Shown piece after piece: positions 24,323 to 30,993 of a stretch of DNA of 64,000 bases; the stretch's first letter is position 1, and each line of letters opens with the position of its first letter. Position numbers and translations under genes: made by a program. The notes beneath the pieces are model-generated. The model had not been told where the DNA came from. It made no database searches and worked only from the letters and a program-made list of their open reading frames with translations. Location of the stretch: positions 14,580-78,579 of the forward strand of contig VXNZ01000033.1 in the NCBI GenBank assembly GCA_009840355.1, written 5' to 3'. Source of the stretch: Chloroflexota bacterium. GTDB taxonomy: Bacteria > Chloroflexota > Dehalococcoidia > Lucifugimonadales > JADFKI01.

Positions 24323-24363
24323 AGAGTCTGATAGACTGACAGACTGATGAACTGACAGACTCT

Positions 24364-24873
24364 CTACACCGGATACCGCCACACTTCGCCCGCCGGCTCT
24401 TCGTCCGACAGCCTGAAGTGCGGCACGGAGAAACCTTCGTCAGTGTCAAGAAACACCACTTCGACGCGCTTGCCGATGCCCACTTCGTCCGGGTCTTCCG
24501 GCTCCATATCATCGTTCAGCAGGTTCGCGGTGATACGCAAGCCATTCTCAGGGTTTGGCTCGCCGCTCTGCTCGTCCAGTTCGACCAGCACGACCGTGTA
24601 CGGCACCCAGTCACGGAACGCTGGCATAATGGCGTGAGTGATGACCTGGTAACTGTAAATCGTGCCTTTGCCGCTGACTTCCTGCCATCCCCAGTTCAGC
24701 GAGCCGCACCACGGACACGCCGCGCCCGGATCACCGCGCAGCATCCCGCAAGTCAGCTCGCTGCACTTCTTCACCACCAGCCTATGCTCCATCGCCGCAT
24801 CGAAGTAGCCCTTGTACTCGCTGTCAAGTTCCGTAATGTTCAATGCCATACCGCGATAATCATATATCGGCAT
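24364..24873 (-). CDS. Zn-ribbon OB-fold protein (DUF35), partner of the thiolase-like protein
   Basis: 169 aa; CxxC...CPWC zinc ribbon (CSELTCGMLRGDPGAACPWCGS). Confidence 0.85.
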   Translation of the reverse strand: MPIYDYRGMALNITELDSEYKGYFDAAMEHRLVVKKCSELTCGMLRGDPGAACPWCGSLNWGWQEVSGKGTIYSYQVITHAIMPAFRDWVPYTVVLVELDEQSGEPNPENGLRITANLLNDDMEPEDPDEVGIGKRVEVVFLDTDEGFSVPHFRLSDEEPAGEVWRYPV

Positions 24874-24966
24874 TACTCTTTTCCCTCCGCAATCGGCGCA
24901 TTAGCCGCTACAGGATGGGTATATTCACATCCAATCCGCCCTACCCATCCTGCACATCGATGTTAT

Positions 24967-26187
24967 TTACTTCCGCATAATAAGCGCGCTGCCCACGCCC
25001 GGCATAGCCCAGCCCATGTTCATAGTGATGTTCACATCCCGCACTTGGCGGCAGCCGCCCTCCGCATAGTCGTAGGAATGCTCACCGTTCTCCCAATGCG
25101 GGCAGTAGTCGTCCACCAAGCCGCGCAGCTGCCGTACATTCTCGATGACCATGTTCATGCCGTGCGTGTAGCCTTCGCACAGATGCCCGCCGCTCGTGTT
25201 GTTCGGACGCCTGCCGCCGAGGTCGGTTATACCGCTCTTCACATACTCCTTGCCCTCGCCCTTCTCGCAGAATCCGTAGTCCTCAAACTGCAAGAGCGTC
25301 GTGTATGTGAAAGCGTCATAGCAGCCGGTAACATCGATGTCATCGTGCGTAATGCCCGCAAGCTCGAACAGACGCGGGCCGATGTAATGCCCCGCCACGC
25401 GCGTAATCGGCGCGTACTGGTAGTGGAAGTCGCCGCCCGGCTTCGATCCTCTGCCCTGCACCGCCATGATGTACGCCGGCGTGTGGCGCAGGTCCTTCGC
25501 GCGTTCTGCCGATGTTACGATGATGCAGGTCGCGTTGTCGGTTTCGAGGCAGCAGTCCAACAAGTGCGCGCACGGCTTGACTATCCAGCGCGAGTTGACC
25601 ACATCATCGACGGTAACGCGCTGCTTCATCAGCGCCTTCGGGTTATTGCTGGCGTGCTTGCTGTGCGTAACCTTGATGTGCGCCAGGTCTTCGCCGGTAA
25701 CGCCGTATTCCATCATGTGCCGCGTGAAAGTAAAGGCAAAGTTTTGCACCGCGCTCGCCACGCCGTAAGTGCGCTTCATCAGGTCGGAGCCGCCGATGGG
25801 CGCAGCCGCGCGCGCCCCCGTGCCGCCTATACGCACCTGCGAATAGCCGTTCATCGCGCGAAATATCGCCACCGTATCGCACATCCCCGCCTCTATCGCG
25901 CCGATGGCAAGCCCAACAAGCGCCTCAGTGCTAGAGCCGCCGCCCGAGCAGTCCATGTAGAAGTTCAGGCGCATACCCAAGTCGTACATCATCGTTGTGG
26001 ACGGCGTGGAATCGCCGCCATGGTAGCTGAGCATCCCGTCCACATCCTGCGGCGTCAGCCCCGCGTCATATATGGCATTGCGAATAGCCTCAACCCCAAG
26101 CGCCCGCGTGCTTCTGCCGGACGCGCGGCTATACTCCGTCTCGCCCACGCCAACGATAGCGTACTTATCCTTCAATCGTCCTTCCAT
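24967..26187 (-). CDS. Thiolase-like protein (SCP-x / lipid-transfer-type)
   Basis: MEGRLKDKYAIVGVGETEYSRASGRS...; GGAGGG 5 nt before ATG 26187. The upstream extension in the track has no support. Confidence 0.85.
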   Translation of the reverse strand: MEGRLKDKYAIVGVGETEYSRASGRSTRALGVEAIRNAIYDAGLTPQDVDGMLSYHGGDSTPSTTMMYDLGMRLNFYMDCSGGGSSTEALVGLAIGAIEAGMCDTVAIFRAMNGYSQVRIGGTGARAAAPIGGSDLMKRTYGVASAVQNFAFTFTRHMMEYGVTGEDLAHIKVTHSKHASNNPKALMKQRVTVDDVVNSRWIVKPCAHLLDCCLETDNATCIIVTSAERAKDLRHTPAYIMAVQGRGSKPGGDFHYQYAPITRVAGHYIGPRLFELAGITHDDIDVTGCYDAFTYTTLLQFEDYGFCEKGEGKEYVKSGITDLGGRRPNNTSGGHLCEGYTHGMNMVIENVRQLRGLVDDYCPHWENGEHSYDYAEGGCRQVRDVNITMNMGWAMPGVGSALIMRK

Positions 26188-26386
26188 GCTAACCCTCCTA
26201 AATTGCAAATACTTGCAGCGCGGTAAGTATCGCCTGTTCAGTAGTGATTGGCAAGTGCGAGCGCATGAAACTGTCCATCTGCTAAACTTGCTATACGGGA
26301 TTTTCTTACACAAACGCAAGTTGCGTGCCGAACATTAGTATCATACAATAGCCACCATCATGTAGGAGGCACACCCAAACCCAAGA

Positions 26387-26789
26387 ATGGCAGATCGAAA
26401 AGCCAAATGGCTCATATACACCGTTCTAGTGGCGCTGATACCGGCAATGGCGCGGATGATAGTATGGCTAATCCCAGAACCCGGACACCGATCTATTCAA
26501 CGCCGTAGATTTCATAATCTTCGGACTGGTACTGCACATATCCAATATCAATGAATTAGAGCACTTCGACGAAAGAGAAGAGTCATGGAAGACAGTCCAG
26601 AACGGCGCATCGGTGTTTCTGCTCATCGTGTACAGCATCTTGTTGACGTCTCACCTGTTCGGTGAAGCAAATCCCGGACTCATAGACACTCAAACTATGA
26701 AAATCGGTGCTATGTTGTTAGGAATTATATCGTTCTTGATAAGTTATTCTGTGTACAACGCGACTTCAAAGTCGGTAGGGGAGAAATAA
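26387..26789 (+). pseudogene. ~133-aa four-TM membrane protein interrupted by a +1 frameshift at a CCC run
   Basis: Frame A reads MADRKAKWLIYTVLVALIPAMARMIVWLIPEPG... Frame B, open from 26472, reads ...DTDLFNAVDFIIFGLVLHISNINELEHFDEREESWKTVQNGASVFLLIVYSILLTSHLFGEANPGLIDTQTMKIGAMLLGIISFLISYSVYNATSKSVGEK*. Lies in the low-GC region. Confidence 0.45.
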
Positions 26790-26927
26790 ATGCTGACAAT
26801 ACCGATAATCGTGCTAACCGCAATCGCCTGCGTGGTAGGACTTAGCGTCGCTGTTTGGTCAATCGTAACTACCGAGAAACGACACCGCGAACGCCTCCGC
26901 AAACAAAAGGAAAGCGTCAGCAACTAG
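26790..26927 (+). CDS. Small single-pass membrane protein (45 aa)
   Basis: MLTIPIIVLTAIACVVGLSVAVWSIVTTEKRHRERLRKQKESVSN. ATG abuts the preceding TAA. Confidence 0.35.
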   Translation: MLTIPIIVLTAIACVVGLSVAVWSIVTTEKRHRERLRKQKESVSN

Positions 26928-27026
26928 GCGCCTCTACAAGGACGAGCGAAAGCGCAGCGTGAGCGAATAGACGATTCACCAGATTCTCGTAACCTAACAT
27001 TTCGGAAGCGTGGGAGACTCGCACCG

Positions 27027-28112
27027 ATGTACAAATTACAAGAACTTCTAGAATCCGCACTACACGAGATTGTGGAAAGTGATGATTGCAATCTGGATGC
27101 CAATCAATTGGAGGACAAGATTTCCAAAATGATTCCAGATGTCTGCGATGAAACAGCAACAGATATGTTGGCCAGTATCAAAGAAGACGCCTTTTCAGGC
27201 GGACTGGAAGAAGCTAGGACGGGAAGACGCGAATTTGAAAGAAGGTTAATGGAGGTTTGGAAAAAGCCGATAGAGCTTCTTGAGTTGTTCGTGTCATTAG
27301 CAACGGAAGCAGGCGTAGATTTCAACAGCGAGTTCGGCAACGAAGCCGTAAGTTCAGACGATTACTTGTTTGAAGCACTCACTAGATTGCATGGCAGAGC
27401 ATGCCAAGTGTCCAATGAAATTCTTGTCCTGTTGCGCTCAGGCTATGCAGATGGAGCACACGCACGCTGGCGGACCTTACACGAGATTGCAGTTATAAGC
27501 TTTTGTCTCAGCGAACCAGAAGAGGACGAGCACAGACAAGAATTAGCTGAAAAGTATTTACTGCATGACACCATACAGCGATATAAATTGGCGTGCCAAT
27601 ATCAGAAGTACGGCGAGAGGCTTGACTTGAAGCCGATTCCACAAGAGGAGTTCGATAATCTCCAGACAGAGTACAACAAGCTCATAGCCCGATTTTGCAA
27701 ACCATTCGAGAAACCCTACGGATGGGCAGCATCACCAAAGAGCCCTACGATGACAGCAATTGAAGAGCGCGTTGAATTGGCTCATTGGCGTCCCTACTAC
27801 AAAATGGCAAGCGATAATGTGCATGCAAATGCACATGGAAGTCACTTTAGACTAGGTTTGGCCCCACTTGACGAGGATATGATTTTGGCGGGACCAAGCA
27901 ACGCGGGATTAGTCGATCCCGGGCATTCAACTGCAATCTCACTCAATCAGATAACCGCAGTCTTGCTCGGAACTAGGTCAAACTTCGACTGCGCGGTCGT
28001 CTTGATGATATTACAGAAATTGGTAAACGAGATTGGGGAAGCATTTCTTGAAGCACACAATTATGTTGAAATGTTATCCAATAGTGAAAATGAGACAGAA
28101 AGCGCGACATGA
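27027..28112 (+). CDS. Hypothetical protein, DUF5677-like (family assignment from memory, not searched)
   Basis: 361 aa, low GC (about 42% in sampled lines). Core RLHGRACQVSNEILVLLRSGYADGAHARWRTLHEIAVISF. Stop overlaps the MTase start (ATGA). Confidence 0.6.
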   Translation: MYKLQELLESALHEIVESDDCNLDANQLEDKISKMIPDVCDETATDMLASIKEDAFSGGLEEARTGRREFERRLMEVWKKPIELLELFVSLATEAGVDFNSEFGNEAVSSDDYLFEALTRLHGRACQVSNEILVLLRSGYADGAHARWRTLHEIAVISFCLSEPEEDEHRQELAEKYLLHDTIQRYKLACQYQKYGERLDLKPIPQEEFDNLQTEYNKLIARFCKPFEKPYGWAASPKSPTMTAIEERVELAHWRPYYKMASDNVHANAHGSHFRLGLAPLDEDMILAGPSNAGLVDPGHSTAISLNQITAVLLGTRSNFDCAVVLMILQKLVNEIGEAFLEAHNYVEMLSNSENETESAT

Positions 28113-29725
28113 TCCCCTCCCCCAACGCCCTCTACTTCGGCGACAACCTCGACATCCTGCGCCAGCACATCCCCGACGAGTCCGTTGACCTCATATACCT
28201 GGACCCGCCGTTTAACTCTAACGCCACCTACAATGTGCTCTTCCGCGAGCGCAGCGGCGAGGAGTCGGCGGCGCAAATCACCGCCTTCGACGACACATGG
28301 CGCTGGAACATCGAATCCGAGCTTGCATATCAGGACGTCGTAACCCAGCAGGGCGGAAAAGTCGGCGAACTGCTCGCAGCCATGCGCGCCTTCCTCGGAC
28401 AGAACGACATGATGGCGTACCTCACCATGATGGCGCAGCGCATGGTCGAACTCCACCGCGTCCTAAAACCCACCGGCAGCATCTACCTCCACTGCGACCC
28501 CACCGCAAGCCACTACCTCAAACTGCTGATGGACGCCGTGTTCGGCCCGGAGAACTTTCAGAGCGAAATCACTTGGCAGCGCACGAGTTCCCACAATGAC
28601 TCAAAGCGATTTGGGCAGGTGAAGGACGCGCTACTTTTCTATTCTAAGTCCAGTAGTCGAAAATGGAATCCCGTATTTGTGCCGCACGACGAAAAGTACG
28701 TGTCGAATTTCTATCGCTATGAAGATGACAAAGGCAAATACAGGCTTCAAGAGATTATACGAACCGCCTCAATGGGTCCTCGACCAAATCTCGCCTATGA
28801 GTACAAAGGTTACACCCCCGAATGGGGATGGCGGATGGAACGGGACAAGCTGGAGTCTCTTGACAATGATGGGCGTCTTGTCTGGTCAAGTACCGGGCGT
28901 CCGTACCGCAAAACGTACCTCTCTCAGGGCAGAGCACCTACAAATCTATGGACAGATATTAAGAACCTGTCAGCGCAAGCCCGTGAACGCCTCGGCTACC
29001 CCACGCAAAAGCCCGAGGCATTGCTCGAACGCATCATCAGCGCGTCCAGCAACGAAGGCGATGTCGTACTCGACCCGTTCTGCGGCTGCGGAACAGCAGT
29101 CGCCGCCGCAGAGCGTCTCAACCGCCGCTGGGTCGGCATAGACATAACCCACCTCGCCATCACCCTCATCCGCCACCGCCTGCACGATACATTCGGCGAA
29201 GACCTGCGCCCCTACGAAGTCGTCGGCGAGCCGAAAGACCTGCCCAGCGCCGAGTCCCTAGCCCTCCACGACCGCTACCAGTTCGAGTGGTGGGCGCTCG
29301 GCTTGGTCGATGCCCGCCCCGCCCGCGACCGCAAGAAGGGCGCAGACGCCGGCATAGACGGCTACATCAGCTTCTTCGACGACAACAGCGGCAAGCCCAA
29401 GCGCATAGTCGTACAGGTCAAGAGCGGCGGCGTGCAGCGCAGCCAGATCGCCACGCTCAAATCTGACATGGAGCGCGAAAAAGCCGACCTCGCCCTGTTC
29501 GTAACCCTCAAGCCGCCCACGCGCCCGATGCAGCAAGAAGCATTGGAAGCCGGCTTCTACGCCCCCGAAGCCTTCCCCGACCACCGCTTCCCCCGCGTGC
29601 AAGTCCTCACCATCGAAGACCTACTCTCCGGCACGCAGCCCCAATACCCCCGCTACGCCCCCGCCGCAACCTTCCCCCGCGCGCCGAGGCGACGGCGGCA
29701 AGGACGGCAAGGGAGACTGGGGTAG
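28109..29725 (+). CDS. Beta-class amino DNA methyltransferase (N6A or N4C) fused to a C-terminal Mrr-like PD-(D/E)xK nuclease-fold domain
   Basis: IYLDPPFNS (motif IV) near the N-terminus, VLDPFCGCGTAV (motif I) about aa 320. C-terminal GADAGIDGYISF...IVVQVKSGG. Confidence 0.85.
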   Translation: MIPSPNALYFGDNLDILRQHIPDESVDLIYLDPPFNSNATYNVLFRERSGEESAAQITAFDDTWRWNIESELAYQDVVTQQGGKVGELLAAMRAFLGQNDMMAYLTMMAQRMVELHRVLKPTGSIYLHCDPTASHYLKLLMDAVFGPENFQSEITWQRTSSHNDSKRFGQVKDALLFYSKSSSRKWNPVFVPHDEKYVSNFYRYEDDKGKYRLQEIIRTASMGPRPNLAYEYKGYTPEWGWRMERDKLESLDNDGRLVWSSTGRPYRKTYLSQGRAPTNLWTDIKNLSAQARERLGYPTQKPEALLERIISASSNEGDVVLDPFCGCGTAVAAAERLNRRWVGIDITHLAITLIRHRLHDTFGEDLRPYEVVGEPKDLPSAESLALHDRYQFEWWALGLVDARPARDRKKGADAGIDGYISFFDDNSGKPKRIVVQVKSGGVQRSQIATLKSDMEREKADLALFVTLKPPTRPMQQEALEAGFYAPEAFPDHRFPRVQVLTIEDLLSGTQPQYPRYAPAATFPRAPRRRRQGRQGRLG

Positions 29726-29806
29726 CGGATAGACTGACTGCGAACTCAGTATGCTAAAATCAGTCTGTCCCGATAATCACTCAGAACTAGCGCCGGAGAT
29801 AACGCA

Positions 29807-29989
29807 ATGAGTGTGTACAAAGCACAACTTGAACGGGAAGAAGACGGCAGGTGGAGCGCGTGGATAGACGAACTCCCCGGCTGCGCCGCTTGGGGATACA
29901 CGCAAAACGAAGCCCTAGACGCCCTCCAAGACGCCGCCGAAGCCTATATCGAGGATATGGTAGAAGCCGGCGAACTGCTCCCTGCGTAA
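29807..29989 (+). CDS. HicB-like antitoxin-fold protein (orphan, no adjacent HicA)
   Basis: MSVYKAQLEREEDGRWSAWIDELPGCAAWGYTQNEALDALQDAAEAYIEDM. GGAG 8 nt upstream. Confidence 0.7.
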   Translation: MSVYKAQLEREEDGRWSAWIDELPGCAAWGYTQNEALDALQDAAEAYIEDMVEAGELLPA

Positions 29990-30993
29990 CCATCCACCGC
30001 TGCCAAGTACCCGTCCCGTTCATCCTCCCCAACCCACGCGCTTCTGAACGCATTGCGCGCTAGTTGCGCGACTTGCCCCCGCGTCAGCCCCACCGCCTGC
30101 TGCGTATTCGCCAGCACCTCACTCATGTAGTAGCTCCGCATATACGCCGGATCGTCCGTGTTCGCCGTAACATTCAGCCCCAGCTCCAGCGCGCGCTTCA
30201 GCTCGGCGGCGCGTCTTGGCGTGGGATTGGTCGGCGTAGCCGTCGTGCAGAATGTCAGGCACACCTGCTGCCGCCTCGCCTCTGCAATCAGCCCCGCGTC
30301 GTCCAGCGCATGGTAGCCGTGGTCGATTCTATCCACGCCGATTACATCGAGACACTGCCGGATATGCTCCACCGAGTTCTCCTGCAGGTGGTCGCAGTGC
30401 ATCGTCAGCATGTAGCCTTCCGCCCGCGCCCGCTCGAATACCTCACGGAACTTCACCGGCGGGTTGTCTTTCTCGTCAGAATCCAGCCCTACGCCGATAA
30501 TCCAGTCCTTATACGGCAGCGAATCGGTGAGCGTCTCCATCGCCGACTCCACGCTCATATCCCGCAAGAAGCCCAGTATCAGCTGAGACCGAATGCCAAG
30601 AGTATCCTGCGCCGCTTCCTGCGCCCTCCGAATACCACTGATGACCGTATCGAACGCGATCCCCCTGCTCGTATGCGCCTGCGGATCAAAGTGCATTTCG
30701 GTATAGACCACATTCTGCGCACGAACCCGCCGCAGATAGGCATAAGTGAGGTCAAAGAAGTCCTGCTCGGTCAACAGCACATCCATGCCGCTGAAATACA
30801 GCGCAAGAAACGATTGCAAGTCCCGGTATTCGTAAGACGCCGCAAGTTCATCCGCAGTCCGATACGGCAGATCGACCCCGTTCCGCCCCGCCAGCCGCAC
30901 ACGCATCTCAGGCTCCAGTGTGCCTTCCAAATGCACATGCAGTTCAGCCTTCGGCAATCCCCGAATAAAAGCGTCTATGCCTATCGCAGACAT
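29944..30993 (-). CDS. add: Adenosine deaminase
   Basis: LPKAELHVHLEGTLEPE start motif; 349 aa. Confidence 0.9.
   Translation of the reverse strand: MSAIGIDAFIRGLPKAELHVHLEGTLEPEMRVRLAGRNGVDLPYRTADELAASYEYRDLQSFLALYFSGMDVLLTEQDFFDLTYAYLRRVRAQNVVYTEMHFDPQAHTSRGIAFDTVISGIRRAQEAAQDTLGIRSQLILGFLRDMSVESAMETLTDSLPYKDWIIGVGLDSDEKDNPPVKFREVFERARAEGYMLTMHCDHLQENSVEHIRQCLDVIGVDRIDHGYHALDDAGLIAEARRQQVCLTFCTTATPTNPTPRRAAELKRALELGLNVTANTDDPAYMRSYYMSEVLANTQQAVGLTRGQVAQLARNAFRSAWVGEDERDGYLAAVDGYAGSSSPASTISSI

Follow-up and report, generated by a model that had tools for sequence, protein, structure and literature searches.

A DNA methyltransferase fused to an Mrr-type domain in a variable gene block of a sponge-associated Chloroflexota bacterium

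Restriction-modification (RM) enzymes that unite on one chain a DNA methyltransferase (MTase), a recognition region and a nuclease of the PD-(D/E)xK type are familiar from the Type IIC/IIG class (MmeI, BpuSI, TstI, Tth111II), where the nuclease is N-terminal, the methyltransferase belongs to the gamma class and specificity shifts by exchange of the recognition region, with no separate restriction (R), specificity (S) or helicase gene. In Type III systems the Mod proteins (EcoP15I Mod, the orphan phase-variable Mods) methylate adenine at N6, belong to the beta class and carry a hypervariable recognition region at their centre; the helicase-nuclease is there a separate subunit, Res. Mrr-type catalytic domains are found in Type IV Mrr, in the MspJI family and in Type ISP enzymes such as LlaGI, in the company of an Mrr_N or SRA reader domain or of an ATPase motor. 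The present work bears on a stretch of 64,000 nucleotides (nt) from a Chloroflexota bacterium (assembly GCA_009840355.1, contig VXNZ01000033.1, positions 14,580 to 78,579 of the forward strand), called here the window, and in it on a block of genes lying between a thiolase operon and add, the gene of adenosine deaminase. This block holds small membrane genes, a gene of the DUF5677 family, a gene for a 538-amino-acid (aa) protein in which a methyltransferase is followed by an Mrr-type domain (MTase::Mrr), and a short HicB-like open reading frame (ORF). Sponge metagenomes account for all the sequencing runs in which the window sequence is well represented, metagenome-assembled genomes of Dehalococcoidia/Chloroflexota come closest to it, and the host genome of the block is that of a sponge-associated, Dehalococcoidia-like member of the Chloroflexota.

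A sequence-only reading of this DNA had taken membrane ORFs, DUF5677, MTase::Mrr and HicB for one undescribed system. Its domain calls were accurate. Three frames stand exactly where it had placed them (27027-28112, 361 aa; 28109-29725, 538 aa; 29807-29989, 60 aa), the stop of DUF5677 overlaps the start of the methyltransferase in a 4-nt ATGA at 28109-28112, Pfam upholds all the domain calls (DUF5677, beta-class N6_N4_Mtase with Mrr_cat, HicB-like), and neither the ORF list nor the Pfam and PADLOC scans of the block revealed a helicase, a specificity subunit or a separate nuclease ORF. The locus is indeed a variable insertion of the defence-island kind between housekeeping operons. The unity of the system is not supported: DUF5677 and the methyltransferase are each found without the other at the same locus. 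We hold it probable, with some room for doubt, that the region from 26.26 to 29.99 kb is a hypervariable hot spot of accessory genes, set between the thiolase operon and add, in which at least two cassettes move independently, and not one system. Its most interesting component is the widespread and uncharacterised MTase::Mrr fusion, a possible new layout for one-protein RM enzymes.

The methyltransferase and its Mrr-type domain

The larger part of the 538-aa protein is a methyltransferase (Pfam PF01555, N6_N4_Mtase, E 6.4e-44 over aa 26-350) with the motif order of the beta class, DPPF (aa 32-35) standing N-terminal to FCGCGT (aa 324-329) and the recognition region lying between them. Over the lobe that binds S-adenosylmethionine (AdoMet) it matches CcrM, M.RsrI and M.MboIIA in the Protein Data Bank (PDB), CcrM (6pbd) being by sequence its closest well-studied relative. 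Among 87 aligned MTase::Mrr sequences, D32, P33, P34 and F35 are kept in 85-86, and F324, G326 and G328 in every one. In motif IV, DPPF (versus SPPY/F) favours N6-adenine specificity, which we may presume for this enzyme. Further on, aa 407-479 pass the cut-off of the Mrr_cat model (31.7 bits for a cut-off of 21, E 1.8e-7) and carry the D..(Q/S)xK residues of the PD-(D/E)xK nucleases. D413, D417 and K438 are invariant in 87/87 sequences that share about 50% overall identity; position 436 is occupied by Q (41 sequences) or S (46), and position 393 by E (23) or Q (64). Compared alone with the PDB, the Mrr-like domain gave no sequence match. The protein is thus a genuine fusion of a methyltransferase and an Mrr-type nuclease domain, with conservation of the nuclease-type residues, and none of the canonical Type I-IV layouts accommodates it. 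D..QxK is the catalytic motif of the Mrr-like MspJI enzymes (PMC12707154).

Set beside the described classes, the protein agrees with Type IIC/IIG enzymes in bringing MTase and endonuclease domains together on one polypeptide and in dispensing with R and S genes of their own. It differs from their MmeI-like layout in that its methyltransferase is of the beta class (DPPF before FxGxG), its recognition region lies in the centre, and a nuclease domain of the Mrr type forms the C-terminus. Kinship with the Type III Mod proteins is equally apparent, as the MTase_III models of PADLOC match it at E 3e-48 and the PDB entries 4zcf and 6k0w match it also (it is the sole protein of the block that PADLOC matches, by Type II or Type III MTase models). 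Yet the block and the 6 kb on each side of it are free of any helicase or Res ORF, none is conserved beside the homologues, and it is the Mod-like protein itself that bears the nuclease domain. With Type IV Mrr, the MspJI family and Type ISP it shares the Mrr_cat fold and the D..QxK motif, but its N-terminal 365 aa are methyltransferase, with no match to Mrr_N, and it has neither an SRA reader domain nor an ATPase motor. Since the partner that recognises DNA is here a methyltransferase, the logic of the enzyme would be modification-blocked, and not modification-dependent as in Type IV Mrr or MspJI.

A second feature of the protein concerns its centre. Syntenic orthologues share 86-90% of their residues in the N-terminal lobe, 74-97% in the lobe that binds AdoMet and 92-95% in the domain of the Mrr type; over aa 156-292 identity is no more than 32-34%. 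One of these relatives (L002) has no nucleotide homology to the window at 28610-28974. In the strain represented by DNA contig X8, from another sponge sample, 28559-29078 are replaced by 638 other letters, with breakpoints on conserved motif blocks. The alignments indicate that the recognition region is swapped between close relatives, a pattern that we would regard as characteristic of restriction specificities under diversifying pressure. The MTase::Mrr protein is probably, to judge from these residues and alignments, a self-contained RM enzyme made of one polypeptide and devoid of a motor, functionally akin to Type IIC. Its central region would pick a short DNA motif, the DPPF/FxGxG lobes would methylate adenine within that motif, and the fused Mrr-type domain would cut DNA that does not carry the methyl mark, while specificity would change through recombinational swap of the recognition region.

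The architecture is far from rare. It has more than 8000 database matches, and relatives are encoded on more than 598 stretches of metagenome sequence. The Mrr domain is present at 83/83 MTase loci examined, and no neighbour is conserved across these 83; one locus (L084) has an HNH gene downstream, another (L085) plain housekeeping surroundings. Full-length homologues (about 45-48% identity, 94% coverage) are found on rhizobial and actinobacterial plasmids, conjugative plasmids among their carriers, and others occur beside the serine integrase of temperate Streptomyces and Mycobacterium phages. In the DNA run X1, from the source sample itself, contigs fragment at window 28130-28530, where the depth of about 82-86 gives way to spikes of 161 and 188 and where the flanks diverge into alternatives; the conserved N-terminal block of the methyltransferase must therefore exist in several contexts of the community. 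One 25.9-kb contig flagged circular (L083) encodes an MTase::Mrr 89% identical to that of the window, along with three tyrosine recombinase genes, an IstB fragment and an IS605 OrfB/TnpB gene. A small element of this kind may be the vehicle that spreads the methyltransferase.

Several facts weigh against the view that this protein restricts DNA. The metal-binding position 436 is Q or S and never D/E in the 87 sequences; the Pfam model NA-iREase1, whose name designates an inactive restriction endonuclease, reaches over the same aa 407-479 a score (32.4 bits) as good as that of Mrr_cat; occurrence in phages fits a protective orphan methylase equally well; and our search of the literature found no measured nuclease or methylation activity for any member. 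We therefore retain, as the most serious alternative and a possible though less probable one, that the 538-aa protein is a solitary N6-adenine methyltransferase whose Mrr-fold domain would be a non-cutting module for DNA binding or dimerisation, with a role in epigenetic regulation or in protecting mobile DNA from host restriction. To the phage, residue and model-score arguments, on which its standing is based, may be added the homologues on conjugative plasmids, the lack of a conserved partner nuclease, the replacement of E393 by Q in 64/87 sequences, and the precedent of CcrM, itself of the beta class and likewise endowed with an extra C-terminal domain. Against this alternative stand the invariance of D413, D417 and K438 despite the divergence of the proteins, the fact that D..QxK is an active motif in MspJI-type Mrr-like enzymes (PMC12707154), and the swapping of the recognition region between near-identical frames of sibling genomes, typical of restriction specificities, whereas housekeeping orphan methylases such as Dam and CcrM are well conserved.

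A bolder extension of the one-protein RM interpretation, which we regard as rather doubtful, would make of MTase::Mrr an unrecognised and very abundant class of motor-less, one-polypeptide RM enzymes (a Type III-like beta-class Mod joined to an Mrr nuclease) that diversify by recognition-region swap and whose translation is coupled, in some Chloroflexota, to that of a preceding 'slot' gene, different from strain to strain (DUF5677 in the window, another gene in X8), which would modulate or complement restriction. Functional studies of fusions with MTase::Mrr or NA-iREase1 architecture did not turn up in our literature search. The stakes are worth spelling out: should the Mrr domain be able to cut DNA, thousands of genes in bacteria, plasmids and temperate phages that bear no other annotation than 'site-specific DNA-methyltransferase' would be complete RM systems, which the Type I-IV rules and the current defence finders would under-count, and the enzymes would be both compact and reprogrammable.

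DUF5677 and the methyltransferase at one locus

The association of DUF5677 with the methyltransferase was examined from both sides. Among 82 DUF5677 loci (L001-L082, being 80 from species-representative genomes together with L001 and L002), searched for the methyltransferase with tblastn, a full MTase::Mrr stood directly downstream of DUF5677 only in L002 and L029, and short N-terminal stubs of it were found 3' of DUF5677 in L001/L003 and L004. Conversely, DUF5677 was upstream in 0/48 MTase loci with at least 1.2 kb of upstream sequence. Further close relatives contributed the pair in L166 and L167, and lacked it in L168/L169 and L170 (60% identity). The pairing is largely unconserved in other genomes, an outcome that the sequence-only reading itself had named as counting against its proposal; it is confined to a few Chloroflexota loci, both genes being solitary almost everywhere else.

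It is the comparison of close relatives at the same locus that is decisive for the separability of the two genes (Table 1). Because DUF5677 and the methyltransferase each occur there without the other, they do not make one obligate multi-gene defence system. Aligned by blastn with L177, the window shows just two stretches of homology, 24329-26257 and 28118-30204, between which L177 has about 690 nt of unrelated sequence. On the X8 contig 26935 is joined to 28109 through 897 other letters (26936-28108 being replaced) that end exactly at the MTase ATG; the 30-nt ends of this 897-nt segment had no match among the sequences compared. Sibling strains break in this way on the MTase start codon and on conserved motif blocks, and the locus offers a clean natural example of cassette turnover.

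We may then picture two cassettes. The first (26258-28108, low in GC) would comprise the frameshifted four-transmembrane gene, the 45-aa transmembrane peptide and DUF5677; the second (28109-29989) would comprise the solitary beta-class N6-adenine MTase with its C-terminal Mrr-type nuclease domain, then the short HicB-fold gene. The boundary between them and a step in GC content coincide. GC is 0.46-0.48 at 26500-28000 only, against 0.57-0.65 around the membrane/DUF5677 unit, and 0.62-0.65 in the 3' half of the MTase gene and the HicB ORF. The block had been described as differing from its surroundings; in GC this holds for 26500-28000 and not for the MTase 3' half and HicB, so that the block is better seen as a compositional mosaic. 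The ATGA that couples DUF5677 to the methyltransferase would be a lineage-specific operon fusion of two neighbours, with no functional dependence implied.

Table 1. Features of the block in the window, and genes that lie from thiolase to add there and in close relatives (TM, transmembrane protein gene; AF2, AlphaFold2)
Feature or locus	Position	Strand	Details
Four-TM membrane protein gene, 134 aa, uncharacterised family	26387..26789	+	frameshifted into ORFs 26387-26554 and 26613-26789
Single-TM ORF, 45 aa	26790..26927	+	ATG overlaps upstream membrane-gene TAA (TAAATG)
Membrane and DUF5677 insertion/deletion unit versus L177	26258..28117	.	blastn; right edge at MTase start codon
DUF5677-family protein, 361 aa, all-alpha	27027..28112	+	Pfam PF18928, phrog_27456, alignments, AF2 models
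MTase::Mrr, N-terminal catalytic lobe, aa 1-155	28109..28573	+	Pfam N6_N4_Mtase; DPPF at 28202-28213
MTase::Mrr, central target-recognition region, aa 156-292, hypervariable	28574..28984	+	alignment of syntenic orthologues
MTase::Mrr, AdoMet-binding lobe, aa 293-365	28985..29203	+	FCGCGT at 29078-29095; Pfam and PDB matches
MTase::Mrr, C-terminal Mrr-type PD-(D/E)xK domain, aa 366-538	29204..29725	+	E393, D413, D417, Q436-V-K438 (29414-29422)
HicB-fold/UPF0150-like ORF, 60 aa	29807..29989	+	Pfam HicB_lk_antitox E 4e-8, profile positions 1-56 of 123
Window, thiolase-add content			TM (frameshifted)-TM45-DUF5677-MTase-HicB
L177, thiolase-add content			MTase (89% identical, same recognition region)-HicB only; no DUF5677, no membrane genes
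L001/L003, thiolase-add content			TM remnant-TM50-DUF5677-MTase stub (aa 4-40, 37 codons) only
L166, thiolase-add content			TM-TM-DUF5677-stub (aa 3-59)-full MTase (other recognition region)-AbiJ/Abi_C
L167, thiolase-add content			TM-TM-DUF5677-MTase (other recognition region)-second TM pair-8xMP-HicB
L002, thiolase-add content			TM-TM-DUF5677-stub fused to HATPase_c_4 fragment-full MTase-...-HicB (frameshifted)-DUF4365
Strains X8/X14, thiolase-add content			TM (intact)-TM45-897 nt other sequence-MTase with 638-nt replacement of 28559-29078

The contrary proposal, that DUF5677 and MTase::Mrr form in this Chloroflexota lineage a genuine two-gene system, seems to us improbable. It would have the methyltransferase mark self DNA while DUF5677, translated together with it, serves as sensor, effector or regulator; an abortive-infection effector might be seen in the membrane pair. 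There is substance to it, and our own account of the locus has here its least comfortable evidence. The ATGA overlap of the window is kept in L029, although identity to the window's proteins has fallen there to 55% for the one and 51% for the other. The pair or its remains recur in three genomic contexts (the thiolase-add hot spot, the vicinity of Ku in L029, the Caldilineaceae locus L004) and in three subclades of the DUF5677 tree. Moreover, MTase stubs remain attached to DUF5677 in four loci (L001:9110-9220, L002:9071-9247, L004:9098-9253, L166:6103-6273); these decaying pieces of the first 40-59 MTase codons, with DPPF mutated, sit directly 3' of DUF5677 where the methyltransferase has been lost or replaced, that of L002 being fused in frame to its HATPase_c_4 fragment. 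Such recurrence of the pair exceeds what a single accident would predict. As pair-bearing loci fall into three separate subclades of the neighbour-joining tree, there must have been either one old pairing followed by many losses, or several independent pairings. A pair of independent cassettes explains only in part both this tight coupling in a few Chloroflexota and the leftover stubs.

Transcription adds to both sides. In a sibling strain, metatranscriptome contigs span 26305-28187; they take in the membrane genes and DUF5677, and the co-transcript extends at least 78 nt into the MTase ORF, in favour of a two-gene system. The body of the methyltransferase is absent from the transcript contigs that cover DUF5677, which speaks the other way: no contig was found on the MTase body or HicB even at 80% likeness, although contigs cannot prove absence and the strain may lack this MTase, and mapping to the methyltransferase at that likeness recovered only generic methyltransferase motifs from other genes. 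Against the two-gene proposal count, above all, the occurrence of each gene without the other at the same locus and the near absence of the partner on either side of the survey, a methyltransferase or its stub being present at only a handful of the 82 DUF5677 loci; to these are added the restriction of the membrane pair to the nearest clade and the differing GC of the two cassettes. Independent cassettes remain our preferred account.

The DUF5677 family

DUF5677 is a stand-alone gene typical of prophage accessory (moron) slots, plasmids and defence islands, in other words an accessory gene of mobile elements. The family is large, with 2559 matches in a word-indexed search and 3966 clusters at 50% identity in an exhaustive one. 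Its members, nearly all single-domain proteins of 340-430 aa, show no informative fusion; among long homologues scanned with Pfam, the sole fusion was a DDE transposase read-through in L023. Clustering the neighbours over the 82 loci revealed no recurrent partner besides the methyltransferase. In Escherichia coli the gene sits in a lambdoid prophage moron slot in 73/5426 complete genomes, always chromosomal, as in NZ_CP024243.1 (L174:12081-13106), where a homologue of 341 aa (36% identity) lies between replication genes and hokD/DUF968/RusA/Q; the E. coli prophage homologue has the accession WP_000379313.1. Members of the family are also plasmid-borne, beside AbiEii. Neighbours at less than 2 kb matched 264 PADLOC families against 123 for a control set at more than 4.5 kb, and include type I S subunits, AbiEii-like AAA_21, Schlafen/AlbA_2 and PsyrA; AAA_21/DUF4276 are among the near neighbours matched. 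At L004:9325-11156 such a defence-type pair, an AAA_21/AAA_15 ATPase and a DUF4276 protein, follows DUF5677 and the MTase stub. A preprint reports enrichment of the domain next to serine recombinases in Bacillota (PMC12632615).

The closest likeness is with the single-gene, Abi-like defence genes of prophage and plasmid moron slots: DUF5677 too stands alone in variable islands, prophage slots and plasmids, where RM, Abi and toxin-antitoxin genes keep it company. It differs from them in having no recognisable catalytic fold, and a point against a defensive role is that a DUF5677 ORF assayed in Enterococcus did not figure with the five that conferred protection against phage (PMC12632615).

The 361-aa protein of the window belongs to the family without ambiguity (PF18928, E 2e-29, 103.2 bits for a cut-off of 27.1, aa 117-273) and matches phrog_27456 of PHROGs, a family of unknown function, at E 6.5e-60. 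Alignments A1 and A5 display a set of invariant polar residues (H122, C126, Q127, D142, R147, R149, H152, E153, N264, H266) that suggests an active site. AF2 models are all-alpha, with a mean confidence score (pLDDT) of 76.5 for the full protein and 78.5 for the core. The fold check did not place the protein: Foldseek, run with the full model against PDB and BFVD and with the core model against PDB, returned no relative and nothing better than E 0.13 (best values 0.26 with the full model, 0.62 with the core), and the profile gave noise only against PDB sequences. That DUF5677 would be a HEPN-type ribonuclease acting as an abortive-infection effector, as its R147-x4-H152 motif in an all-helical protein might evoke, together with the invariance of R147, W148, R149, H152 and E153 in 28-50 sequences, the defence islands and moron slots of its neighbourhoods and the AbiJ/Abi_C gene in the same island of L166, is very improbable, as Foldseek found no HEPN or other structure at the values just given, no HEPN family of Pfam matched even at E <= 1, and a motif defined by four-residue spacing is by itself weak evidence. 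With so many clusters and no known fold relative, the family is a reasonable target for functional screening.

The edges of the block

Flanking repeats and attachment sites were searched for, with chance-level matches only, and sigma-70 promoters and terminators did not exceed the level of shuffled sequence.

At the 3' end of the block, the last 46 nt of the HicB-like ORF (29944-29989) run into the 3' end of add, which is convergent with it. Orthologues are found at the same locus in L177 (81%), L167 (82%) and, frameshifted, L002. As that of L167 has 73 aa, the window copy may be shortened. The resemblance to HicAB toxin-antitoxin systems lies in the N-terminal HicB fold, but the ORF has neither a HicA partner gene nor the C-terminal DNA-binding domain, and it is better described as a UPF0150-like orphan. 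Other ORFs of at least 40 aa at 29746-30063 (42-88 aa), not scanned against family libraries, are out-of-frame or antisense within hicB/add.

At the other end, the sequence-only reading had seen two small membrane proteins in 26387..26927. Membrane ORFs are present there, and they are three, which amount to a split 134-aa gene followed by the 45-aa TM ORF. In the window strain the four-TM gene has lost 2 nt after 26471, which breaks it: in tblastn, the L002 protein, intact with its 138 aa, meets the window first in one frame (aa 1-32) and then in another (aa 37-130), and an extra 'TC' after 26471 is present in the metatranscriptome contigs X3-X5 and in the DNA contigs X8/X14 from other sponge samples. 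Adding this 'TC' restores a four-TM ORF of 134 aa whose TAA overlaps the ATG of the 45-aa ORF. The deletion is real in the window strain, because the DNA run X1 (depth 86) agrees with the window. The 134-aa family counts 442 database homologues and has no Pfam model; its closest member, P0241, is 92% identical and intact. The 45-aa TM ORF, itself covered by metatranscriptome contigs, is kept 3' of a 134-138-aa membrane gene in L002, L166 and L167, and a 50-aa ORF takes its place in L001. More widely, a small TM ORF stands upstream of DUF5677 in 11/71 loci, homologous only within the window's own clade. At L167:7928-9006 a second copy of the membrane gene pair (138 aa and 40 aa) has after it, in place of DUF5677, a gene for an 8xMP (octameric membrane protein). 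The membrane pair may head a slot whose third gene is variable.

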